The position numbers and the translations under genes are program-made. A stretch of DNA of 55,909 nucleotides, the filler included, from Stramenopiles sp. TOSAG23-3 (taxonomy: Eukaryota), in NCBI GenBank assembly GCA_900128585.1. It is 4 parts of 4 records of this genome, joined end to end, with 100 filler letters (N's around TTAATTAATTAA, not from the genome) between each part and the next. Parts side by side here need not be neighbours in the genome. Positions count along the whole stretch, not along the records: positions 51,706 to 53,757 come from LT645123.1; 3 more parts are not named here. One strand, given 5' to 3'. Of this stretch, positions 15,681-55,909 are shown one piece after another. Under the pieces are notes generated by a model, which had not been told where the DNA came from, did no database searches, and saw only the letters and a list, made by a program, of their open reading frames with translations. The first letter of the stretch is position 1, and every line of letters starts with the position of its first letter.

Positions 15681-16838
15681 TCAACAACACAAAGAGCAAC
15701 TCCGTTTGCAGTCGAAGCAACATTCGTGGCAACATTCGCCGCACGAACGGGCATGGGCCACCCAAACAATTACTTTGTGGTCCCCTGCCCCTGTGGCCAA
15801 GCGGTAATTATCCTTGGACCAATCGATCGACAACACCCATCCCCGATGCATGCCGACATAATGAACGAGCTCAAGCCGCTTCTTCGTATCCCACACGATA
15901 ACGCGCCCGTCGTGCCCGCATGACACGAGGAGCCGGCCTTTGTTGCACTCACCGCTAAACTTTACATCGTAAACTATATCTTTATGGCCCTTCAACGTGC
16001 TGGCGCACCTTCCATTTTCGACGTCCCACATTTTCACCGTTTTGTCATGGGAAGCCGATGCAAAAAAAGTCATGTCGTACCGCCATGCGACGGACAGCAC
16101 TGGTTCACGGTGGCCCGTGTAGTTCATCAACATGTCGCCCGTAGCAGCGTTCCAGCGCTTTATGGTTAAGTCTTCCGAGCACGTTAAGAACTGCTGCCCG
16201 TCTGGGGAGAATACTATCTTAAATATATAGTCCGAATGCCCGTCGTAATTGTCGGGCGCTCCCTTTATCGTATACACCTGTGCTGCATTCCCTTCCTTCC
16301 ATAGTAGATTCTGCGTCGCCCTCTTCAAATCCCAAACTTTAATGGTTTTGTCTTTGCTACAAGATAGCATTCTGGTGTTGTCGGGGGAGACGGTGATCCC
16401 CATGACCACGTCCGTGTGTCCTGAGAATGTGTGCAGCACGGCGAATGCACTCCAAACAAACGTTTTACGCGTGCTCCATATCATAATGGTTTTGTCTGCG
16501 GACGCAGTTAACAGAAAATTCCCGTCGTTGGTCCACGCTATGTCCATAACCCACCCGGCGTGCTCTTTCAAAGTTCGAACTTGTTGGCCATTTCTGATGT
16601 CCCACACAATCGCCGACATGTCATGGGAACACGTTGCCAGCAAATCGCCGTACAAAGGCTCAAATTTGCAGGCATAAACAGCTTTCTTGTGCCCGCGCAA
16701 GGTCGATTCCTGTACAAAAGATCGCACTTGTTGCGCTAAAATCTTCGGCCTGTGGCGGACCAGGCCAGAAAAGTCTGGCAATGCTACACCGCCGTCTTTT
16801 GCCTGGCCAGTGTTCACTGCATACTTACCACCTGACAT
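15681..16838 (-). CDS. WD40 beta-propeller (~7 repeats) with Cys-rich C-terminal tail
   Basis: Repeated GH...V....FS/W....L.S.S.D.TIK.WD units; ends CGECCHECCFDCKRSCSLCC*. ATG at 16838. Confidence 0.92.
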   Translation of the reverse strand: MSGGKYAVNTGQAKDGGVALPDFSGLVRHRPKILAQQVRSFVQESTLRGHKKAVYACKFEPLYGDLLATCSHDMSAIVWDIRNGQQVRTLKEHAGWVMDIAWTNDGNFLLTASADKTIMIWSTRKTFVWSAFAVLHTFSGHTDVVMGITVSPDNTRMLSCSKDKTIKVWDLKRATQNLLWKEGNAAQVYTIKGAPDNYDGHSDYIFKIVFSPDGQQFLTCSEDLTIKRWNAATGDMLMNYTGHREPVLSVAWRYDMTFFASASHDKTVKMWDVENGRCASTLKGHKDIVYDVKFSGECNKGRLLVSCGHDGRVIVWDTKKRLELVHYVGMHRGWVLSIDWSKDNYRLATGAGDHKVIVWVAHARSCGECCHECCFDCKRSCSLCC

Positions 16839-17438
16839 CGCATTATCTTGCTGCTTGAGTTGGGCGGACTCCTTTTTCTTTAAAAATAATCCAACTTGGT
16901 GACTATAATAGAAATTGTTTAAATTGTTTAAAAACAACTTTGATTTTGAAACTTACCGTTATTCCACGAAAGAGAGAACAAGAACTAACAAACACAAACA
17001 ACCATCATCATCGTTTCGTCGTCGTCGCTTACTACTACTACTTTTTCTTCCTCCCTCCAGTCCTGCTCTGTTCCTGTTGTTGTATCTTCCTCCTTGATTT
17101 TAATTCACAACAACAAAAAATAATAATAAATAAATAAATACTGCTGTAGTATTTTATAATAATTAATTATTGGAAGAAAAAAATGCTTCGTTCGTTTCTT
17201 TCGTTCTTTCGTTCGTTGTGTTCTTCGATTCTTTCTTCATTCGTTTTTTATTGTTATGTTGGTTCGTTTATTTATTTATAAATAATATAATAATGATGCG
17301 GTTATTTTTTGTCATCGAACTGTTGCTGTTGTTGTTGCTGTTGTTGTTCTTATCTCAAGGTAGAAGCAAGCTGTCCATTATTGTCTTCTTCAGATTAATG
17401 CTTTCTTTTCCACCGTGTGTGTGTTGTGTGTTTGTGTT

Positions 17439-23191: not shown

Positions 23192-23499
23192 GGTGAAGCA
23201 GTGTATAAATTTATAATACATAGTAATAGGTAGGTCGTTTTTAAAACCTTCTGCTATTGTAGTATTACATAATATCCAATGAATGCCCAACAACAACAAT
23301 GTAATAATAATTATTTTTTGTATTTATTATTATTTATTTAATAAAAAATGTAACGGGGATTCACCAAGATTCAACGCTGAAAGCGTAGGTGAGATAGGTC
23401 AGGGTTAAATTTTTCCAAGGTAGTTCATCGAAAAATTGGAAACGTTTGAAGAGGAACGCTACGATCATCCTAGCGTCCTGAAAATCTGCCGGGCGTACG

Positions 23500-25518
23500 A
23501 TGGCAGATATAAGAAAGAAAGAAATGCCTACGATGGCAGAACTGAAAAAGAAAGACATACGGTGGACGGTCAACCCTCTCGAGGTGGAGAGCGATGCCAC
23601 CCAGGAAAACCGTCCGTCGACAGGACCAAGAACATCTGCCATACAACGTGCCTCGAAGATCAGAGGTATTGTGAAAAATCAAAAATGGATCAGCACTGTC
23701 GGTGTGAAAGGGTTCTGCCTTATCCTTTTTATGGCGCTAATATCGGGATTTCACTGCTATATAATTTATGCGTACCGTCATAGAATGGACGGTTCCCTGT
23801 GGCCGTTTTTTTTGTTCGCGGTTGTGTTTGCCCTTCTTATTTTCCCTTATAGTATCTGTTGGAGAAAGAGGCTAGTGTCGTGGGCATCGCAGAAATATGG
23901 AAACAAAAGAAAACGGGGAATGAAGGCGAAGGGGTTCTCAATGCTCACATTTGCTACGTGGTATTCCGATAATCTAGCTCTGGATGGAAAGTACTTTTTG
24001 GTCCGTATGTATTTTAACGAGTTCGTCGAGACGATTTACCAATTTGTGAATTTCCAAGGGATTTACGTCTGTACGTTACCCATAGGAGTAACTTCAGGGC
24101 TGTGCATCTTGTTGCTATTGGACTCTTTGTACAGGATGTGGACCTTTCGGGCCGTTTGGTTTTCAGAAAACCACCATATATCTGTGGATGCTAGAAATGT
24201 ACAAGTGCACGTTGACATGTTCGTCGACGGGTGCTCCCTCGTTGTCCCCCCGGCCGTCATGTGGCTTGCGTATAACATGTATATAACCAGGGGAGAAATG
24301 GCGTCGATTGTCTTCATGCCAAGTGCATTTTTATTCGTCAAGATCAGACGGATGTACGACGAGTCATTGCGGCGTTACACAGAAAGGCAGATTATGGAAG
24401 CGCAGAGCAGGAATTCGTTAAGCTTGTCTAGACGGAGGGAGAGTGTGTACGGTGTCATCAACTCTGCTAAAATAGCAAAGGAACAAAATGAGGTGCTCAG
24501 CACTCCATTGCGAAAATCGATTTTTGTAGTGAGCGGTATCAGTGCGGTCTTCCTTGCCGTGATGCTCGCATCGCAGTTGCTGAATTATAGCGAAAACAAC
24601 GCCAGATGCACGGAACAGCTTGGCTCCCACTTCTGGGAGAAGGGGTGCAAAGTAAAGGTGCCCTACTGCAAAAGTCTGTTCACGCCCACCTGCGATTGTG
24701 CTGTGATCGATACGCAGGGGTATAACCGAACAACGCTTCCGGGGAAGTTCACTGGTTTGAACGCCATGCGAAAACTTACGATACAAAACAGTGCTCTGAC
24801 AACGATGCCAATGGATATGGGTGCAGAGTTCAAAAAAGTGAATCTTATTGTACTGAAAAACTGTAGATTGTCAGCATTTGACGTTGACGTTTCTATGTGC
24901 GAAGAGTTGATTACACTTTATTTGGACTTTAACTCATTGTTGTTTGTTCATAAAAGCGTGTGGAATCATACAGTTTTGATGAATTTCGATATCAGCGATA
25001 ATCCGGGACTAACTATTCCCAAACAAAAAATCCTGCTTCCAAAACTTTCGTATTTTGCAATGGTAAACAATAGCATGGAAATAATGCCCACGCTATTCGA
25101 AAACCTAGATGGCACGCCGTCGTTTCCAAGTATACAATATTTGTACCTAAGCAGGAACAAAATGGTCACTGCTCCCAGCACGATGAAAAATATTGCGCCG
25201 ACATTACAAAGAATATGGATGGCTGGTGTTGGCTTGGTCAGCCTCCCAGATTATATGTCCTCTTTTGAAAGAATCCAATTTATTGATGTGAGAAACAATA
25301 ACATAACAATTGTGGATGACAGGTTCATGAAGATGTTGCCACTCACTGCCATATCTTACTTTGCCGACAACCCAGTGTGTAGCACATCGCTGAGGGATAA
25401 ATTAGATTGTGTGCCTCTGTGTTCAAAATATTGCTTTGCCAGATATCATGACAATGGTTTTTGTGATAGCTCTTGCAATTCTTTCAAGTGTGATTATGAT
25501 GGTGGAGATTGCGTTTAG
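23500..25518 (+). CDS. Multi-pass (~7 TM) membrane protein with C-terminal Cys cap, leucine-rich repeats and LNR (Lin12/Notch)-like module
   Basis: Hydrophobic helices over aa ~65-360; LxxLxLxxN repeats (LITLYLDFNSL, IQYLYLSRNKM, IQFIDVRNNNI); NPVC cap; terminal CSKYC...DNGFCDSSCNSFKCDYDGGDC. Confidence 0.88.
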   Translation: MADIRKKEMPTMAELKKKDIRWTVNPLEVESDATQENRPSTGPRTSAIQRASKIRGIVKNQKWISTVGVKGFCLILFMALISGFHCYIIYAYRHRMDGSLWPFFLFAVVFALLIFPYSICWRKRLVSWASQKYGNKRKRGMKAKGFSMLTFATWYSDNLALDGKYFLVRMYFNEFVETIYQFVNFQGIYVCTLPIGVTSGLCILLLLDSLYRMWTFRAVWFSENHHISVDARNVQVHVDMFVDGCSLVVPPAVMWLAYNMYITRGEMASIVFMPSAFLFVKIRRMYDESLRRYTERQIMEAQSRNSLSLSRRRESVYGVINSAKIAKEQNEVLSTPLRKSIFVVSGISAVFLAVMLASQLLNYSENNARCTEQLGSHFWEKGCKVKVPYCKSLFTPTCDCAVIDTQGYNRTTLPGKFTGLNAMRKLTIQNSALTTMPMDMGAEFKKVNLIVLKNCRLSAFDVDVSMCEELITLYLDFNSLLFVHKSVWNHTVLMNFDISDNPGLTIPKQKILLPKLSYFAMVNNSMEIMPTLFENLDGTPSFPSIQYLYLSRNKMVTAPSTMKNIAPTLQRIWMAGVGLVSLPDYMSSFERIQFIDVRNNNITIVDDRFMKMLPLTAISYFADNPVCSTSLRDKLDCVPLCSKYCFARYHDNGFCDSSCNSFKCDYDGGDCV

Positions 25519-25869: not shown

Positions 25870-27443
25870 GAAGCATCGTAATCTCCGCTGAGAATAATTT
25901 TTCTGCACTTCGTTTGGCATAGAAACTGCATAATGTTTCCGACAAGCTCGTGCGGCAAATTGTAAACATTTGATAACGCACGTTTGTGGTTTAGAACGCA
26001 CAAAAAGGCAATAACGGTGCGTTTTCCGACAGCGACGTAATCGATAGGGACTAGTTCCAGCAGCCGCTGCTGGTCGCATTCGTCCAGGCTGTAAAAGCTC
26101 TGTTTTTCTATTGTCAACACTTCTAAATTTCCATTGCGCAAGCCGTCCAAGGGGTTTATCTTTAACGCATCCAGCAGAATTTCTACGTCGAGCTTGTGCA
26201 ATCGGACATTCTCTAGGTTTAATTTCTGCAAGCGGTTGAATGTGAACCTCTTCCAGGTATTTTCAGGGGTCAACAAAGAAACTTCCGAGGGCACCATGCC
26301 ACTGCCAACGCTAGCAGCGACTCGTCTCGGTTTTAACGTTTCCGCTAAACGCTTCATCCAATTGTTTCCCACTCCATCCTGACAAACGCTCTCCTCCCCT
26401 TTCAATTGCAGTTCTTTTGTAAATGATCCGCTCGTGTTTCTAGTGGAAAGTCCGGAGAGTAAGGCATCCAGAGCAATGCAGGACATATCGTTGCCTCCGC
26501 ATGAAAGCCACTGTATTGCATGCATCTCACTCCACAGGCTGTGGGTCAAAGCGACCATACCGTCGTCGCCGATTTTGTTGTCGGCGATGTTTAGTTTATG
26601 CACTGGGCTCTGGGAGTGCTGGCGGCGATTCAAGGCGTTCGCCAGTGCAAAACCCCCTTCCATGCTAACACAACAGCCGGACACATCCAAAGCAACCAAA
26701 CTCTCCAGAGACAGTAAGACGGACTCGGAGAGAATAGCTGCGCCAGTACTGCCGAGGTTGTTTTTTGCCAAAGACAAAGACTTCAAACTGCAAGGGCCAC
26801 GAACGATAGCCTCGCAAAACTCCTCGAAAATTTGCAGTCCGTCGAATTGGGAGCATGATATTCTGTTGTCTGATAAATTCAATACCTCCAAGGTCCGATT
26901 GTGCAAAAACATGTCCGTTGCTTCCCTCATACCGAAGCTCCACCCGAACTGACACGCTTGGCAATTCTCCACGTTGAGCTCCCGCAAACACGTATTTTGA
27001 GCTATGTTTGTCATCCACGCGGCTGTCCCGGTGGGCCCGATTCCTTGATTACCTTGCAAGTTTAGCTGGCGTACGCTACACGAATTTCCATTTGCAAATC
27101 CGTTTTCTCCAAAGCATGATGCGAGTTTTCGTGAACCGGGGACCAAGAAACGATTGAAGGACAGATCGACTTGCTTCAGAGCCTTACAATGTTTAAGAAG
27201 CTGGCAGATGTAAGGTACTTCCCTATCTGACATCAGACTATCTTTCAGAGTGACGGACTGAAAACCAAAGTAACGCTTTGAGCGCACATGCCTCACAAAC
27301 TTTTTCAACTCTATGTTACAACTCTGGGTGTTTCGATTTTTAAACTTGGACAACTCCAGCAGAAAGTCTTGCCCACCCGCCCCTTCTCTCTTCAACCCGC
27401 TACTTTCTCCCCCCGTCTCGACTTCGCGATCGCTGTATGGCAT
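25870..27443 (-). CDS. RNI-like (ribonuclease-inhibitor class) LRR protein; 3' end lost in the gap
   Basis: LKQVDLSFNRF, LEVLNLSDNRI, LKSLSLAKNNLG..GA..L, LNIADNKIGDDG..AL repeats; F-box-like LPHELVGNIMQFL near the C-terminus. Confidence 0.88.
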
Positions 27444-28108
27444 GGTTTCAAGCTGAGCGACAACTGTGATCTAAAAACTGTGGTTTTGTACTGATTAAAG
27501 TAACGACGCAAACAGTGCGAACATTATAACTCCTTCAATTTTGCTTTACCCTCGACTTTGATCCCTTGAATGTCCTAATATGAAAGCAAAGAAAAGTTTT
27601 TAGTCTGGAAGTTTATAATTGATGTGTAGTAATAATAGGAGGATGGAGAGAAGAAGAAGAAAGAAGAAAAAGAAAAAAAAAGGAAGAAGAATTTCAAAAT
27701 AATTATTATTTATTTATTATTATTAGAACTATTATTAATAGCTTTTAATAAAAAATGAATGAAGAATGAATTTAAAAAACCGGAATATTATTATTAACAA
27801 ACAACAAGCAGCAGAGCAGCAGCACGCAGAGAGAGAAGAAAGAATTTCAAAATAAAACAACAACAACAGATAATAATAATATAAAATAAAAATACGCCAT
27901 CAATCATCATTCATCATCATTATTCTTCATCCATCATCCAGTATTCCGTTGTTCTTTGATTGTGGTATTTGCCGTCAATGAGACAAACAAAGTGTACAAA
28001 TGTTACCCTACAAAGTAGAAAGGCAATATCCCGATAGTCGCCACTTTCAACTGTGCAGTAAAGTACAGAAGCCCCCTGGCTGGCATTTTGTTTTGAGCAA
28101 TATCCAAC

Positions 28109-29779
28109 ATGTCCAGGGCCCGTACACCGAAGCGAGGCTCTTCGCCGAAGCGAGGCTCATCGCCATCGAGTAGAAACAGAAAAAAGTCTGGAAAAGAAAC
28201 GGATGCGGATAGGGAACAACGTGTTGACGATGAATTGAAGCGTTTAAAACTGCTAGCGGATAAGAAGAAGGCAAACCAAAGAATCCTGGCCCAAAAGTGG
28301 ACAAGGGAAGTTATCCCAACGTTGTATTTTTGGAAATATAAAGGCGATAAAGACTTACTGGAACTATTGAACGACCCCGTCGCAAAATACGCGTGGGACC
28401 CCAACGGTTCTCTTAACGGGAAAACTCCGCTTCGGCACGCTGTTGTTTATCGCGACACGAAGCTCATGGATCATTTAGTTGACACATTAAAATGTAAGGT
28501 TGTGCACGTGTCTGTCGACGACGGAGATGGGTGGAGCGCGATGACAGAGGCCGCAGCGCAGGGGTGGACGGACGGGGTCGATTATTTGTTGAAAAAGAAG
28601 CACCCGGTCGACAAGCCGTCTGATATGGGGGGACTGAATCCCCTTTTGCACGCGGCAAAGAACGGGTACTACAAGACCTGCAAGTTTTTGATAGCAAACG
28701 GCGCTTTCCCCGACATCGTCGACAACAATCGCTACAACGCACTGATGCACGCAGTAAAGCGGAAGTGCCAGTACTTTGAGCACGTGCAAGCCGTGCAAGA
28801 ACAACTGCGAGGCATGTGGTTCAAAACCATGGAAGCAAGCAAAAATACAAAAAAGCCTAAATCTGCGGGAAAAAAGAAACGCCCTGGTTCCAAGGGTAAG
28901 GGGGCAGGCACCAAAACAGCCAAAGAACCGAGCGTCCAGGCACCAAAGCCTATGTTCGGAACTGCAAACGTTCCAGAGCATAACAAAATTGTAAAATTTC
29001 TCATCAAGCAAAAGTCAAACGTAAACCATCGGGATCGATGGGGAAGAAATGTGCTCTCCCACGCCGCGGAGGCCGGGAACCGCCAGGCTTGCCAAATGCT
29101 CGTCCGCGCGGGTGCGCGATTGGACGAAGTTGACAACGAAAAGCGGTCCCCTCTGCACTGGGCATTAAGCGCGGGTCGGTCGAGAGTTGCGCGCTTGCTG
29201 GTCCAGATGGGATGTGCCCTAAATATCCAAGATGTGGAGGGGCACACGCCTCTGATGATGTGCGCGAAGATGAACAAAATAAAAGATGCGTTGTATCTAA
29301 ACGCGGCTGGTGCGGACAAAAACCTGAAGACGGGGCATGGGTACACTGCTTTACAAATCGCTAGTTTTCACGACTTTATAGAACTAGAAACCGTTATCAA
29401 AACACAGTCACACTGGGCGAAGGAAAACTACAAGATTTGGAGAAGGGAGAGAAGAGAAAAGAGACGAGCAGACAAGAGGCGTGCAGATCAATTGATTCAA
29501 TTGGAAAAAGAGCGAAAGGAGCAAGAAGAGCGAGAGCGGATAGAAAAAGAAAAGAAGAAAAAGAAGAAGCGCAAGGGAGGGGGGAAGCCTCGGGGCAAAG
29601 GGAAAAGCAGGCCAGGTAGCCCGTCCAAAGCGGAAAAGGGCCCGGACATTAGCATGCTTATGAACAATGGGCCAGCTCCACCGACGAAAAAGGAGAAGAA
29701 AGTGCAAGCGGAATCTGACGTCAGCTCAGAGCCGGAGAGCTCAGATTTTGAGCATGATTTTGAGGGGAAACAATATTAA
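28109..29779 (+). CDS. Ankyrin-repeat protein with basic N- and C-terminal tails
   Basis: TPLRHAV, NPLLHAAKNG, SPLHWALSAG, TPLMMCA and TALQIAS repeats. Confidence 0.92.
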   Translation: MSRARTPKRGSSPKRGSSPSSRNRKKSGKETDADREQRVDDELKRLKLLADKKKANQRILAQKWTREVIPTLYFWKYKGDKDLLELLNDPVAKYAWDPNGSLNGKTPLRHAVVYRDTKLMDHLVDTLKCKVVHVSVDDGDGWSAMTEAAAQGWTDGVDYLLKKKHPVDKPSDMGGLNPLLHAAKNGYYKTCKFLIANGAFPDIVDNNRYNALMHAVKRKCQYFEHVQAVQEQLRGMWFKTMEASKNTKKPKSAGKKKRPGSKGKGAGTKTAKEPSVQAPKPMFGTANVPEHNKIVKFLIKQKSNVNHRDRWGRNVLSHAAEAGNRQACQMLVRAGARLDEVDNEKRSPLHWALSAGRSRVARLLVQMGCALNIQDVEGHTPLMMCAKMNKIKDALYLNAAGADKNLKTGHGYTALQIASFHDFIELETVIKTQSHWAKENYKIWRRERREKRRADKRRADQLIQLEKERKEQEERERIEKEKKKKKKRKGGGKPRGKGKSRPGSPSKAEKGPDISMLMNNGPAPPTKKEKKVQAESDVSSEPESSDFEHDFEGKQY

Positions 29780-30097
29780 TGGGTTTTTTAGATGTCTCTG
29801 CTGTTTCTTTCTGTAATATATAGTTTTTTAAAATATGGAAATACTGCTCTTTATATTTTTCCGTTGTGGCATTAGCAGTAACACAGCATTAAAATACGGT
29901 ACTTCCCGAAGAGTTGTTATTTCCTTACTACTAGGAGGTACTGCAACATCTTGGTGGACCTCGCCGAACGAGAAGCAAGTCTGTTCCGGGCTGGTGCATA
30001 CTCAATCTGCACAGACTGCCAAGAGAAGTGAGAAAATATTTTTTCATTTAAGAGCCATATCTTACAGAAAGACCCGATACGAATTACGCTTCTCAAA

Positions 30098-31636
30098 ATG
30101 AGCAGCCCATCCCGCAGAAGAAAACGAAGAGATGTTGACAGGACTGCAGCTTGGCGCACCCGCAGCCCCCCCTACACTCGATGGACAAGAATGTGGTGCG
30201 GGGACGGCGAACAGGATTTTTACTTTTACCACAACTTTGAAGGGCACGTAGTGTTCTCGCGCCCGTTTGATTTTGGGAAGGCTATTAAGAAGAAAACAAA
30301 CAGACGTAGGAAAGGCGCTCCGACAAAGAAGGAGGAGGAAAAGGAAGACGTCGAAGAAAAGCCTAGGGCACTGCTAGAAATAGAGTCCGCATGGGCCATA
30401 CAGCGAGTGGCAAGACAGTACATAGCTAGGCGACGAATCCGGTTGAAACGGGCGGACAAATTGGTATCCAGCGGACGCAAAACTACCCAAGGTTGGATCG
30501 CGTTTGATGATCCAACTAGTCTCCTTGTATTCGGAGCGTACTACAAGTGCTACGTAAACGTAGAAACGCACACGGTTCTCTGGAGGCGTACATATGAGAA
30601 CGCTGCAGAACGGTATGCGCGAGAGAAGCGGGAAGCCATAGAGCTTCAGTTGAAGCTGGACACGGAGATGATTCATTACGGTAGGTTGGGAAACGTCCAC
30701 GAAGCTCGTAGGCGAGTGAGAAAAGGCGCTAACATGTACTACCTGGACCCAGAGCACGGCTGCACGCTGGCTCATTTTGCGGCCGCCCGCTCTCTTATGA
30801 ACGTTTTGCAGTGGCTCAACGCAGAGAGCTTCAACTTTTCTTTCAAAGACAGGCTTTCCGCAACGCCCCTCCATTACGCTGCAAAGTCGGGGAATGAAAG
30901 AGTTATCGAATTTTTGCTACAACGATCGAATGTGCACCTCGAAGGAAAGGACAATCGCGGGCGCACGCCACTCTTGTGGGCTGCGTTTGGGGCGCAGACG
31001 TTTGCTATAGAGATGCTCCGGGATGCAGGAGCAGATTTACACTCGATGGACAATGCAGGGTGCACCGCGGTCCATAGGGCTTCGAACAGCCCCATTTCGG
31101 GGAAGCGGATGAACACGATATCATGGCTTCAAGCAGAGGGTTTAAACCTACGCCATAAAGACAACTGGGGTTGGACTCCAGTAAATAAGGCTTATACCTG
31201 CAAACAGTACGATGTTGTAGAGGAATTAAAAAGGCATGGGTGTGACCTGACCGTAGAAAACAACTTTGAATCAATCGAGGGGTGGACTCCGGTGCACGTT
31301 GCGGCCCTTCAAGGCAGAGTCGACGCGCTAGAGTACCTTCACAAACGAGGCTGTGAGTTAGACGTGCCCGACAAACGGGATGAGACGCCATTGCATTTGG
31401 CAGCAGGAAACGGCCACGAGGACGCGGTGAAGTATTTGCTGCGCCAAGGGTGCTCTACCAAAACTAGGAATAACATTGGGCAAACCCCGAAAGACGTTGC
31501 TGCCCGGTTGGATCACGAGAATGTCATTGAAATCATACAAGTTACGGAAGATAGAATGATGAGATTGGAGCAGAAGAAAGAGAGGGAGAAACAGAAAGCG
31601 AAGGAACGTTTGGCAAGGAGCAAAAAGAAAAAATAA
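30098..31636 (+). CDS. WW-like / IQ / WW-like plus ankyrin-repeat protein
   Basis: WTRMW....DFYFYHNF.G.VVFSRP (WW-like), AWAIQRVARQYIARRR (IQ), GWIAF...YVNVET..VLW (WW-like), then TPLHYAA/TPLLWAA/TPVHVAA/TPLHLAA ankyrin repeats. Confidence 0.9.
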   Translation: MSSPSRRRKRRDVDRTAAWRTRSPPYTRWTRMWCGDGEQDFYFYHNFEGHVVFSRPFDFGKAIKKKTNRRRKGAPTKKEEEKEDVEEKPRALLEIESAWAIQRVARQYIARRRIRLKRADKLVSSGRKTTQGWIAFDDPTSLLVFGAYYKCYVNVETHTVLWRRTYENAAERYAREKREAIELQLKLDTEMIHYGRLGNVHEARRRVRKGANMYYLDPEHGCTLAHFAAARSLMNVLQWLNAESFNFSFKDRLSATPLHYAAKSGNERVIEFLLQRSNVHLEGKDNRGRTPLLWAAFGAQTFAIEMLRDAGADLHSMDNAGCTAVHRASNSPISGKRMNTISWLQAEGLNLRHKDNWGWTPVNKAYTCKQYDVVEELKRHGCDLTVENNFESIEGWTPVHVAALQGRVDALEYLHKRGCELDVPDKRDETPLHLAAGNGHEDAVKYLLRQGCSTKTRNNIGQTPKDVAARLDHENVIEIIQVTEDRMMRLEQKKEREKQKAKERLARSKKKK

Positions 31637-51499: not shown

Positions 51500-51605
51500 T
51501 TCTTCTTCTTCTTCTTTTTTCTTCTCTCTTCTTCTTCTTCTTCTTCTTTCTTCTTCTTCTTCTTCTTCTTCTTCTTCTTCTTCTTCTTCTTCTTCTTCTT
51601 CTTCT
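51500..51605. repeat. (TTC)n microsatellite running into a gap
   Basis: Seen directly. Confidence 0.95.
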
Positions 51606-51705: not shown

Positions 51706-53515
51706 GGCCGTCGGTGATTTGGCTAAGAAAATGACCGTCTACAATCTAAAGACTGGTACGAAAGAACATGTGTTCGAGCACGAAAGCTGGGTCCTTACCT
51801 GCTGCTTTTCTCCGGAGAGTTTATTGGCCGTGGGTGACCGGGCTGGGAAAATGACCGTCTACAATCTCACAGCAGTTCCATTACCTAACGAATTACCTCT
51901 GTCTAAAAGTCCATCACATTGTAAACACGTAGTTCACCGCAGAGGTGAGGGCGGTACTACCATCCTCCATCGTTTAGTAAACGAGGGCACTACAGACCAA
52001 TTAAAAGCATATTTAGATGCTGTGGATTATGCCGGGCCAGTCCAGAACGATGAAAACAAGAGCCCCCTTGATCTAGCTGTCGGCCTTTTAGACCATGCAA
52101 AAGCAGAATTACTTCTTGAATCGTATGCATTGCATATTCAAAACCTGCTCAAAATACCAAACAGTTTATCATTTCTGTGCGAAAATTTAAAGCAAATGAC
52201 CGATGCGTTCCCAGATTTAACAGTAAAGTTATTGGATGGTTCGAAAAAAAAGTTGAATACCAAGAGCATGGAGCGTCTAGAGGTGAAATCAGTGCAGTAT
52301 AAGGCCTTTGCTAGCGCTGATGCGGAGAATCTGTGGACCTCTGATGACGCCCAAAAAGGAGGAAAAGAAGTTGCCGTGACCCCGTATCTTGTCGGTTTTC
52401 CCGGGTTTTTATCTCAGGACGGCCCATTCGACGCCATTGTGCGCAGCGAGAATTTAAAAGCATTTGAAACCGACGCGATGAAATACGCAGTAGACTACAA
52501 ATGGAAAACCTATGGTCGGAATGTCCAATTATTTATCGTGATCCTGTACGTGCTCATGCTTGCGTTGTTTACAATCGGCCAAATAGAACATATGTCTGGA
52601 AACGATTTTCTTCCATGGCTTATTGCTGCCTGTTTTCTTTCCGTCGTTTTCATCGTTGAGGAAGTCGCGCAAGTGTACAGTGATCCTTTGAGTTACTTTT
52701 CTTCGGGATGGAACGTTATAGATATTTGTGCGTATTTCATGGTTATTTTATCCACCGTTTTGTGCGGTTCCGTAGAAAACAACGCCGTTCCTGTAGTGTC
52801 TGGCTGGACCTTTATCGTTCTGTCCGTGAATTTTCTGAATTTCTTGCGGCCATTTGACTATTTTGGTTCGTTGATACGTATGATCACGCAAATCTTTTCA
52901 GACATGAAAAATTTCATCGTACTTCAGATGGTTTTTCTCTTTGGATTTACGATGTGTTTTATGGTCATGTTGGCCAATAGCGAAGCGTTTCAGGGCGCGG
53001 TGGCCTTTTTAACTGGGTACGAAATGATGCTTGGGGACTGGGACATGGGAAATTTCGAAGCCTTTACGATAAAAAAAATCAATTCCACCAGCGTGGTAGA
53101 AGTCCCAGATCCAGTGACGACTGGTTTTGCGATTCTAGCCTTTTGTTTGTACATGTTTTTGGTACCCATAGTAACAATGAACTTGCTAATCGCCATCATG
53201 GGTGATTCCTACGACCGTGTTAGGGACAATGAAGCCGTAGAAGGCCGGCTCCAGAAAGCAGGGGTGCTTGCCGACATGGATAGAACTTGGAGTTTTTGGT
53301 TGACAAGAAACGAAAGTGTTCGTAGAAGAAATTACCCACGGTGTTTTCATGTGTTGGAGCCCGATGGTCTGGATACGTACGAGGATTCGGAATGGGAAGG
53401 GCGGTTGAAGGCTTTGCGAAGGAGCTTGATGGAGAGTGATAAGAAGGTAGATGCTCTCCAGAAGGAAATGAACGAGAAGCTAGATGCAATCTTGAAGCAT
53501 TTGTCCAATTCGTGA
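51706..53515 (+). CDS. TRP-like cation channel with N-terminal WD40 repeats and ankyrin-like repeats; 5'-truncated by the gap
   Basis: HESWVLTCCFSPESLLAVGDRAGKMTVYN (WD40); TILHRLV and SPLDLAV (ankyrin-like); VDYKWKTYG, YFSSGWNVID, FGSLIRMITQIFSDMKNF, pore YEMMLGDWD, MNLLIAIMGDSYDRV (S6); C-terminal coiled coil. Confidence 0.9.
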
Positions 53516-53757
53516 GTCGTTTTTAGCCTATAAGATAATTGTAAATTCAGCTCACGAAATATTTTACATTGAATGAAAGACCTACTTCCCGGCGATAATC
53601 ATCCTTTGCTGTCTCCATATTAATATGAAAATAGCATATAATATGTTATTGAATACAGGTTACATGGACATACAGTCTATCATTGTTTGTATATTATCCC
53701 CTGTATCAAGTTTCTTGTCCTCGTTAAAGCCCTGTAGGGGATTTGGAGGCTCAAATC

Positions 53758-53857: not shown

Positions 53858-54030
53858 TGTAAGTTTGTGTTGAAATAAATTTCCATCGTTTTTACACCGA
53901 AAAGAAATGTTAATTTATTTTAAGAGATGCTGTGTTCATCTAAAATACCGATTGATAAAACAAAAAAAAGAAACAAAAAAGTTGCAAAAGAACAATTGTT
54001 GTTGGAACGTTGCAACAAAGTTGGTGTTGT
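53858..54030. repeat. Third copy of the ~200-bp AT-rich dispersed repeat
   Basis: Aligns by eye to 32360-32530 and 32584-32740. Confidence 0.85.
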
Positions 54031-54298
54031 AGTTTATATAGGCCTTCCCAGAACAAGGTCACAGCAAAGAAAAAAAAAAGAAACGCTGCTTCTTTTTGTT
54101 TTCTTGTGCAGCGTCTCCAGCAGCAATTACGGCTAGAGACGGCACAAGGGTGGTTCCCTCTAGGGGCTCCGACTACAACAGCAATACCTTGCCGCCAGTG
54201 CAGAAAACTAATGGTGAAGAAGGGATAATTTTAAGTATATATACTAATTGTAAAATTTAAATGCGACGCTCAATTCCGTAAGCAGCAAGTAGCACCGG

Positions 54299-54766
54299 CT
54301 AGGGGCCACAGACTTTTTGCTGCTCCATATTGTACGCGGCGGCTGCAGCCCGCTTGTGCGGGGACAGCGGCTCCCCCATGAAGTTGGTGATCTCCTGCCT
54401 TCGCTTTTTCCCAGACGCCGGTGGCGGGTTGGGCTTGACGAGGACGAGGCCGGCGAAGTTGTTCCTCCCCTCCCGCTTCCCCTTGACGACCCCGTTCTTG
54501 TCCGTCGACCTTGACACTCACTCTATCTTTGGACTTCGGAAGGTTGAAAATGTACTGCGGGTTCTGGCAGAACTTTAGGTTCTCCTTCCCGGACCCCGGG
54601 ATGGCCATGGGCCCGCCCACGGTGTCTAGCTCGTCGCCGATGACCCAGCTCCCCTCGTAGGTCTGGCTTACAGCTCCGGCAAGGCGTCGACCTTGATCTC
54701 CTGGCGGGTGAAGACGTGCATCGTGTACGGGATCTTGACCCCCCACTCCCGGGTGTACGGGACGAT
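54299..54766 (-). pseudogene. Frameshifted fragment of a calpain domain III (C2-like) containing gene
   Basis: GC-rich island reading IVPYTREWGVKIPYTMHVFTRQEIKVDALPEL / SQTYEGSW...DTVGG...FCQNPQYIFNL / ...FAGLVLVKP over three frames; no start or upstream exon visible. Confidence 0.65.
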
Positions 54767-55663
54767 CTACGAGGATCCCTAATAATTATTGCCAATTATT
54801 AGGGCTATAGCTTAATCTATACTATAGTCTATAATATAATAATAAAATAATAATAATAACGCTGAAAGCCAAATATTTCCTTGCTGCGAGGGTAATGCTT
54901 GTGTTTATTTATACTACAATGTGACTCTGTAATATGCATTAGTAAGCATGAAATACAACAATGGGCGAAAGGATTACAAATGTATTATAATAAACACTTG
55001 TTCTGAATATGAAGGAAGAAGAAGAAGTTTATTATTAATATTATTATTATCATATAAATAACCTAATACTAACTCTGTGAAAGAAGGAGCCAAATTGCCA
55101 AGAAACAAGGAATTTTGATAAAAAAAAGTGGAGGAAGCCAGTGCGTGTGCGCATACATGAATGAATGAATTATAACTAAACAGAGAAAGAGGATGAAAAA
55201 CGAACGAACGAATAAAAAAGAAGAACTTCACAACACACTACACACACTGTGTACAGTATAAAAATGAAAGACCAAAAAAAGGGGGGGGGCTACATTTATG
55301 ATTATTCTTCCAATTTCTGTAATATTCCGAATAGTGTGTACAATAGTATGCCCCTATTAATCAAACATATTCTTTTTCTTTTCTTCAAGTATAAATTTAA
55401 TAACAGTAATGATGTGCTGAAATATTTTCACTATAGTATGGCGCTGTAATATCTTTATCTTTTTTTATGTGGAAAATATGGAATTTTCCTATATTATATC
55501 TACATATCCACATTTACGACTTAACTTCTGTTTCCCCATGCATTAGCATTTTGTAACGATTGGGAATTGAAAAGTACTAAAGTGGTAATCGCTCTCAAGG
55601 ACGAGAACAAGAGCAAACGTTCATTTACACGTATTAAAAGCATTGCGGATTACAAAAAGCAAA

Positions 55664-55828
55664 ATGAAATTAAAAACTGCAGCATTGGCGTTGGCTGTTG
55701 CGTCTACATCACTTACAGCTGCAAGTGGACACGGGCTGTGTAAAGAACCAGTTTCTTTTTACTCAGATTGCAAATTTGAACAAGAAACTTCTAAGGTATC
55801 TATTGAGGGAGATCATCTCTTGGTAAAG
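55664..55828 (+). CDS. First exon of a putative secreted protein (signal peptide); continues beyond the window
   Basis: MKLKTAALALAVASTSLTAASGHGLCKEPVSFYSDCKFEQETSKVSIEGDHLLVK, followed by AG|GTAGAA and a GAA tract. Absent from the ORF track because no stop lies in the window. Confidence 0.65.
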
Positions 55829-55830
55829 GT

Positions 55831-55909
55831 AGAAGAAGAAGAAGAAGAAGAAGAAGAAGAAGAAGAAGAAAGAAGAAGAAGAAGAAGAAGAAGAAGAAGA
55901 AGAAAGAAG
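55831..55909. repeat. (GAA)n microsatellite
   Basis: Seen directly. Confidence 0.95.

Follow-up and report, generated by a model that had tools for sequence, protein, structure and literature searches.

A TRPW-family channel gene fragment in Stramenopiles sp. TOSAG23-3, possibly from a sub-lineage with highly alike WD40 units

The channel gene fragment and its family

The window analyzed here is a stretch of 55,909 nucleotides (nt) from the genome assembly of Stramenopiles sp. TOSAG23-3, made up of four pieces with N44-TTAATTAATTAA-N44 linkers between them. Its third piece (positions 51706-53757, 2052 nt) carries a fragment of a channel gene on the plus strand, whose reading frame runs from 51707, is open throughout and ends with a TGA stop codon at 53513..53515, giving a product of 602 residues (P0001). 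WD40 units, an ankyrin-like linker and a six-helix channel domain follow one another in this frame, and the gene is a member of TRPW, the TRP channels with WD40 repeats. We consider it probable that the contig represents the 3' 1.8 kb of an intron-free TRPW-family cation channel gene and that alike WD40 units of 40 residues are a trait of its sub-lineage; possibly, that sub-lineage combines highly alike units with variable contact positions. The WD40-TRP architecture was already known, and it is the behavior of the repeats that, judged from the sequences compared here, would be a possible new variant.

Pfam assigned Ion_trans to residues 275-508 of P0001 (2.8e-18), and all of the solved relatives listed for the protein were TRP-family channels, the best being 6pw4 (1.6e-8), followed by TRPV6, TRPM2 and TRPA1. 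A family profile built from 74 members matched TRPA1 at 8.6e-61, from its last ankyrin repeats through S6, and also NOMPC (1.5e-52) and Inactive (1.7e-50). The transmembrane domain (52529..53197) was delimited by hydropathy, by the Ion_trans match and by alignment to the solved TRP channels, and it has the character described for TRPW, that is, a six-helix domain of the voltage-gated-like superfamily that is closest to type I TRP channels. Hydropathy placed the helices at residues 275-293 (S1), 305-323 (S2), 337-355 (S3), 361-379 (S4), 404-422 (S5) and 479-497 (S6). Immediately upstream is a region (52358..52525) that is highly conserved in the relatives and ends in KWKTYGR, aligning with the KWKRYGR that precedes S1 in TRPV6. 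The pore loop (52997..53047, residues 431-447) contains an MMLGD motif that is identical in the full-length relative P0002 and aligns with the MMLGD of frog TRPA1 (P0007).

At the end of S6 the stretch NLLIAIMGDSYDRV aligns with TRPV6, and residues N492 and I495 are nearly invariant across the family. The segment that follows, GDSYDRVRDNEAVEGRLQKAGVLADMDRTW (53201..53290), aligned with both 6pw4 and TRPV6 and is predicted to form a helix at the place of the TRP helix. Near the C-terminus there is a heptad-like stretch (53393..53503), which on its sequence is probably a coiled coil; the relative P0010 weakly matches coiled-coil families at this point.

Between the WD40 units and the channel lies a linker of about two ankyrin-like repeats (51929..52123, residues 75-139, GGTTILHRLV...SPLDLAV...). 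P0001 on its own had no Ank match in Pfam at E<=1, and the assignment is based on the Ank_2 matches of two relatives that align over these residues, P0034 (4.4e-9) and P0064 (2.9e-8). In both of these proteins Ank_2 lies between the WD40 part and the channel.

The WD40 part is N-terminal of the channel in the same reading frame, as in TRPW. It begins with the last eight codons of a partial unit (AVGDLAKK, 51707..51730), whose register was taken from the 40-residue units of the relative P0008. A complete 40-codon unit follows, MTVYNLKTGTKEHVFEHESWVLTCCFSPESLLAVGDRAGK (51731..51850), which aligns with the last WD unit of P0002 (residues 768-806), over which Pfam placed a WD40 match (781-811). 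The repeat match then identifies the start of a terminal partial unit (MTVYNL, 51851..51868) that runs into the linker. Since the frame is open from the first base of the contig, the contig starts inside a repeat, and 1.35 WD40 units are visible. P0001 is 56% identical to P0002 and collinear with its residues 768-1373. As P0002 is 1375 residues long and its N-terminal 800 residues are WD40 (PF00400, 3.5e-41; about 14 units), around 760 residues probably lie upstream of the contig start; based on this alignment, the missing part probably comprises some 14 units, or two propellers.

These results bear out much of an earlier interpretation of this DNA, made from the nucleotide sequence without database searches and referred to below as the sequence-only reading. 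It had described a TRP-like channel with a six-helix TRP-type pore and N-terminal WD40 repeats, on a contig broken inside the repeat array, and all of this agrees with the domain matches, the helices and pore motif, and the alignment to P0002. Its mention of ankyrin-like repeats was a fair description of about two repeats, by way of the relatives.

A full library search returned 1951 matches at E<=1e-3 and 407 at E<=1e-10, of which 150 were listed. The matches listed, together with some proteins from word-index searches, included 61 long relatives of at least 850 residues. WD40-type propellers were found in at least 49 of these 61, counted in two batches with unequal cut-offs. In the first batch 33 of 37 had them at E<=1e-6, the exceptions being P0045, P0084 and P0091, with Ion_trans only, and P0089, with ankyrin. 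At the stricter E<=1e-20 applied to the second batch, 16 of 24 had WD40-type propellers, one had SLOG and seven had nothing at that cut-off. Two other domains were seen in channel-family relatives, a cyclic-nucleotide-binding domain at the C-terminus of P0080 and a TRPM-type SLOG domain in P0127, which groups with a WD40-bearing row in the tree. A scan of a bacterial and archaeal genome collection with the protein found no relative, which says little given the make-up of that collection, and a degenerate DNA pattern for the WD40 unit had no match in the same collection.

In a FastTree phylogeny of 71 channel halves (SH-like support), in which several long branches meet, P0001 joined P0008 (support 96), then P0002 (100), then P0010 (97). 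The four belong to a larger clade of 18 rows (support 97), all of them WD40-bearing, and frog TRPA1 falls outside the family on a long branch.

The WD40 units and where they differ

The two visible copies of the repeat are 120 nt apart, and positions 51706-51747 and 51826-51867 are identical at 36 of 42 nt (86%); a repeat search of the stretch reported the pair as 41 nt, 85%, at the same spacing. Within the pair is an identical 21-mer, with its second copy at 51847-51867, that occurs exactly twice in the whole window; 100 shuffles yielded no match to it. In shuffled versions of the contig (n=20) the best 42-nt pair reached only 24-27 of 42. Four of the six mismatched bases fall in two codons, TTG/CGG (L/R) and AAG/GGG (K/G), each with two base changes, and the other two are synonymous (GTC/GTG and GAT/GAC); a third synonymous difference, CTA/CTC, follows directly after the 42-nt pair. 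An Rfam scan of the window gave no match.

Fifteen codons could be compared between the copies, eleven of which encode the same residue with a choice of codon. The same codon was used in 8 of these 11, against 3.9 expected from the codon usage of the window (P=0.010), which indicated that the pair is related beyond what the protein motif demands. The 14 repeat codons contain about 10 silent sites with about 3.5 synonymous differences (proportion of silent differences, pS, 0.34) and about 32 non-synonymous sites with 3.5 non-synonymous differences, giving a ratio of non-synonymous to synonymous divergence (dN/dS) of 0.26. With a pS of 0.34 at 86% identity, the pair falls short of what is called near-identical among amplified propellers. 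The sequence-only reading was therefore right about the 36 of 42 matching nucleotides, the 120-nt period, the identical 21-mer and the concentration of the differences in two codons; its description of the repeats as near-identical at the DNA level was overstated, and its proposal of a rapidly reshuffled array finds no support in a pair of such appreciable silent divergence.

It could be argued that the WD40 segment was mis-joined to the channel gene during assembly, or that the repeat is a collapsed or duplicated read artifact. Short-read assembly is known to fail on alike WD40 repeats and is unreliable there (PMC12222747), and the public fragment P0166 looks like such a chimera, with its WD unit 2 out of frame to the channel C-terminal region. 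The last 23 residues of P0166 match the window at 53368-53436 in 20 of 23 positions out of frame (frame 1, the gene being in frame 2), which indicated that its WD unit 2 connects straight to the gene's 3' end, the junction falling on a CATGTGTT.GAGC-like stretch common to both; the fragment was either made by chimeric assembly or has lost an internal part. Against an artifact in the window, no stop interrupts the frame, six bases distinguish the two copies, and the order of last unit, AVPLP linker and channel recurs in the independent proteins P0008, P0002, P0012, P0013, P0010 and P0026. We regard an artifact as highly improbable.

The relatives give a broader view of the units. The closest, P0008 (78% identical by BLASTP), has three consecutive 40-residue units that are 85-90% alike (34/40, 34/40 and 36/40). 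High internal conservation has been defined as 85% identity across 100 amino acids or more (PMC4986451), and P0008 reaches this value with 120 amino acids at 85-90%. Unit identities were 37/42 in P0086, 33/39 in P0013, 30/39 in P0012, 25/41 in P0083 and 24/41 in P0010, and averaged 43% in P0026 and 42% in P0090. When compared with solved WD40 proteins, the units of P0008 matched PkwA best (1.1e-35), followed by Nostoc 2ymu and Apaf-1.

Three public fragments (P0165, P0166 and P0072) have a leader of 30-45 residues that runs straight into the same type of unit as that of the window. The first units of P0165 are 78% identical to the window's last full unit (BLASTP over 54 columns), and the unit's first 18 residues are identical in the two. 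Together, these fragments indicated that the first and last units of the array are of one type in this lineage. A narrow, unit-specific hidden Markov model found such units in only 11 proteins and was not used for counts. Two of the relatives, P0010 (671 residues) and P0083 (930 residues), have a seemingly complete N-terminus and, between it and the linker, no more than two WD40 units. Either assembly has collapsed the array or a true two-blade form exists, in which case a propeller would have to be built from the blades of more than one subunit.

Of the six relatives whose units are alike, four start inside a unit, as does the contig in the window, a pattern consistent with the known trouble that short-read assembly has with alike repeats.

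For the positions at which units differ, we used a numbering derived from the PkwA alignment, that assigns position 9 to the histidine of the GH-like dipeptide. Fungal HET-D and HET-E have WD40 positions of high dN/dS at 10, 11, 12, 14, 30, 32 and 39 (PMC12222747), which in this numbering fall on the segments H-xxx-V-x and G-[DS]-x-[AD]-x. Across 11 pairs of adjacent units from six relatives, which are not independent of one another and include the close kin P0012 and P0013, 33 of 54 comparisons at the fungal positions differed as opposed to 22 of 251 elsewhere (Fisher P=6e-16). The values were 26 of 45 and 14 of 207 with P0012 left out, and 8 of 15 and 2 of 72 for P0008 alone. The two residue differences in the window are at unit positions 30 and 32. 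P0165 and P0166 have almost identical leaders, and their units differ at 11, 12, 14 and near 30.

These patterns invite the view that the WD40 array is a fast-diversifying receptor, shaped by unequal crossing-over and diversifying selection, in which a non-self ligand opens a Ca2+ channel as part of an immune or allorecognition device. The internal conservation of P0008, the concentration of differences at the fungal positions, the two base changes in each of the differing codons of the window, the differing units behind similar leaders and the closeness of the units to the WD40 class of PkwA, Nostoc WRAP and Apaf-1 are all in its favor. Against it, the dN/dS of 0.26 over 14 codons comes with high silent divergence. 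The loop positions in question vary in any WD40 protein and are the least constrained ones in every such domain. In addition, new propellers with alike blades have appeared in every lineage, and no immune role is known for them, according to the accessible text of PMC9218822. Together with the absence of an effector domain and the location of the propeller, discussed below, these points make the receptor view unlikely.

Several observations weigh against a sub-lineage of alike units, or against the TRPW assignment as such. When 163 family proteins were scanned with 30-residue windows, requiring at least 70% identity at an offset of 25-70, only eight had alike units (P0008, P0013, P0086, P0012, P0083, P0026, P0010 and P0090). 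The full-length proteins P0002, P0003 and P0004 have divergent units, their best 30-residue self-matches being 16, 9 and 10 of 30, respectively. In the window just 14 residues of the two units are comparable, 12 of them identical, and the silent divergence and dN/dS of the pair do not support ongoing homogenization. Because the 3' end of the contig is not repetitive, a fragmented assembly would explain the 5' break equally well. Pfam called no WD40 on P0001 alone (best E=0.24), and in the tree, the WD40-bearing 18-row clade stands as a proxy for a grouping with named TRPW sequences. The variability of the loop positions in WD40 proteins at large is a further caution.

Based on some of these points, the gene could be an ordinary TRPW gene with divergent units, in which the match represents a conserved strand B-C motif of two neighboring units, or an old local duplication, under purifying selection. 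P0002, with about 14 units that average 44% identity (over seven units), would fit this explanation, as would the difference at about one third of the silent sites of the pair and the small number of residues that can be compared. Codon sharing above chance, the three consecutive units of P0008 and the resemblance of the first units of P0165 to the window's last full unit speak against it. We accord it a rather low probability, and the membership of the gene in a TRPW sub-lineage with alike units is the reading retained below.

Neighboring sequences in the window

The third piece and the fourth (53858-55909), which ends with the window, are each exactly 2052 nt long. The second piece ends in a (TTC)n tract (51500-51605) and the fourth in an (AGA/GAA)n tract (55831-55909); as these are reverse complements, the two pieces may abut across one microsatellite. 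Within the fourth piece, the minus strand of 54244-54795 is G+C-rich in A+T-rich surroundings, with overlapping open frames in three phases. It had no Pfam match and showed a single weak similarity, to the WAVE1 homology region (E=0.11); it may be a frameshifted gene remnant.

The first and second pieces each have an open frame with leucine-rich repeats at one end (23482-25518, plus strand, and 25870-27470, minus strand), the one in the first piece also having a Notch LNR domain at its cut end. Tandem genes for ankyrin-repeat proteins follow on the plus strand at 28097-29779 and 30032-31636 (Ank_2, 1.1e-36 and 5.6e-52). An ordinary WD40 propeller protein is encoded at 15681-16952 on the minus strand (PF00400, 3.8e-64), and apart from a weak tblastn match it is unrelated to the units of the channel.

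Interpretation and comparison with known systems

In our favored interpretation, the 36/42-nt match would mark the place where the last full WD40 unit meets the partial unit that ends the array. Units of the sub-lineage would be of a single 40-residue type, from the first one behind the short leader to the last one before the linker, and most differences between them would fall at five loop positions on the propeller's binding face. By analogy with the family, four subunits would assemble into a cation- or Ca2+-permeable pore, gated through the transmembrane domain and the post-S6 helix in the manner demonstrated for TRPW1. The cytoplasmic propeller may then serve as a docking or regulatory surface for an intracellular partner, with contact residues that change quickly.

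The propeller must be cytoplasmic, as it is in TRPW1, and the leaders of P0165, P0166 and P0072 are not hydrophobic, so any ligand of the propeller would be intracellular. In the accessible text of the TRPW1 study (bioRxiv 10.64898/2026.06.15.732144), the agonist occupies a pocket of the membrane domain, with the propeller on the intracellular side. A WD40 sensor of outside cues is thus not the known mechanism, and the ligand sensor proposed by the sequence-only reading finds no support there; the same facts stand against the receptor view. That view also lacks an effector, as no NACHT, NB-ARC or death-type domain was identified in P0001, in P0002 or in the leader fragments.

An immune-like role of the propeller as a sensor is in our judgment a minority possibility, drawn by analogy with fungi. 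In its specific form, the array of this TRPW sub-lineage of marine protists would evolve like a HET-E/NWD sensor, recombination keeping its units alike as its contact residues diversify, and be wired to a Ca2+-permeable pore, making a one-polypeptide intracellular recognition device, which we consider doubtful at best. If it were true, a HET-E-like array would sit on a pore and its output would be an ion flux, with a logic comparable to that of NLR resistosome channels.

Compared with the accessible text of the TRPW papers, what is new is that the units of several members are 85-90% alike and differ at the positions of fungal non-self specificity. If long reads confirm the alike units, they would offer a handle on the function of the TRPW propeller, since strains could then be compared for the number of their units and for their contact residues. 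Short-read assemblies break or collapse such genes, and TRPW counts and domain maps drawn from them may therefore be wrong.

The fungal HNWD proteins (HET-E, HET-D and NWD) also have units of about 40 residues, and in the relatives studied here the units are 85-90% alike and vary at the same positions (10, 11, 12, 14, 30, 32 and 39). Of the unit identity characteristic of HNWD, at least 80-85% across 100 amino acids or more, the window offers 12 of 14 residues, and P0008 shows it in full. Unlike HNWD, this family has an ion channel as its output part. Pfam identified neither a NACHT nor an effector (HET) domain in P0001 or full-length P0002, and in P0165, P0166 and P0072 the leader is followed at once by WD units, with no NLR part. 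The likeness to HET-E/NWD suggested by the sequence-only reading hence stands for the alike units and their variable positions in relatives, and fails for the domains that accompany them. A search of the literature for WD40 ion channels with concerted evolution or diversifying selection found only an unrelated fungal paper.

Among solved proteins, the cyanobacterial WRAP protein of Nostoc (Npun_R6612, 2ymu), with a recently amplified array of 14 blades, gave the strongest match to the WD40 part of the family profile (1.2e-106). It differs from the window protein in being part of a STAND ATPase, and its blades have no synonymous differences in the accessible text of PMC9218822, unlike the window pair with about 3.5 on 10 silent sites. 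The same text reports amplified propellers with alike blades from all lineages, 84% of those in eukaryotes being fungal.

With TRPA1, NOMPC and TRPV the channel half shares the MMLGD pore motif and an LNLLIA..G motif at the end of S6. Unlike TRPA, TRPV and TRPN, the protein has a WD40 array as its N-terminus and only about two ankyrin-like repeats in place of a long ankyrin domain. The Chlamydomonas TRP-like channel 6pw4, the best solved match to the channel half, is similar over the transmembrane part only; Chlamydomonas TRP11 was placed in the TRPW clade (bioRxiv 10.64898/2026.06.15.732144).

TRPW was defined by its WD40-TRP architecture in a preprint of 15 June 2026 (bioRxiv 10.64898/2026.06.15.732144), and a second group named the same clade (bioRxiv 10.64898/2026.06.15.732245; PNAS, PMC13663828). 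As far as the accessible text of these sources goes, there are 17 members in Salpingoeca rosetta, and the two 2026 studies report TRPW from choanoflagellates to diatoms. The former lists euglenids, ciliates, diatoms and chlorophytes as having the architecture, in many cases with ankyrin repeats interposed between WD40 and channel. The structure of TRPW1, determined by cryo-electron microscopy at 2.37 Å, shows a 7-blade propeller on the intracellular side, along with a TRP helix and a coiled coil at the C-terminus. The statement that characterized TRP channels have ankyrin or MHR rather than WD40 N-termini, from which the sequence-only reading started, is accordingly out of date. In the accessible parts of both preprints and PMC13663828, supplements aside, we found no mention of near-identical units or hypervariable positions.

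Like TRPW, the protein described here and its relatives have WD40 repeats, an ankyrin stretch and a type-I-TRP-like six-helix domain on one polypeptide. The two remaining TRPW features may have counterparts in the post-S6 stretch, with its alignment to 6pw4 and TRPV6, and in the heptad-like tail. Unlike TRPW1, with its single 7-blade propeller, the full-length relatives have about 12-14 units. As the combination of WD40 and TRP is already in print, the window adds one more member to TRPW, from an intron-poor eukaryote.

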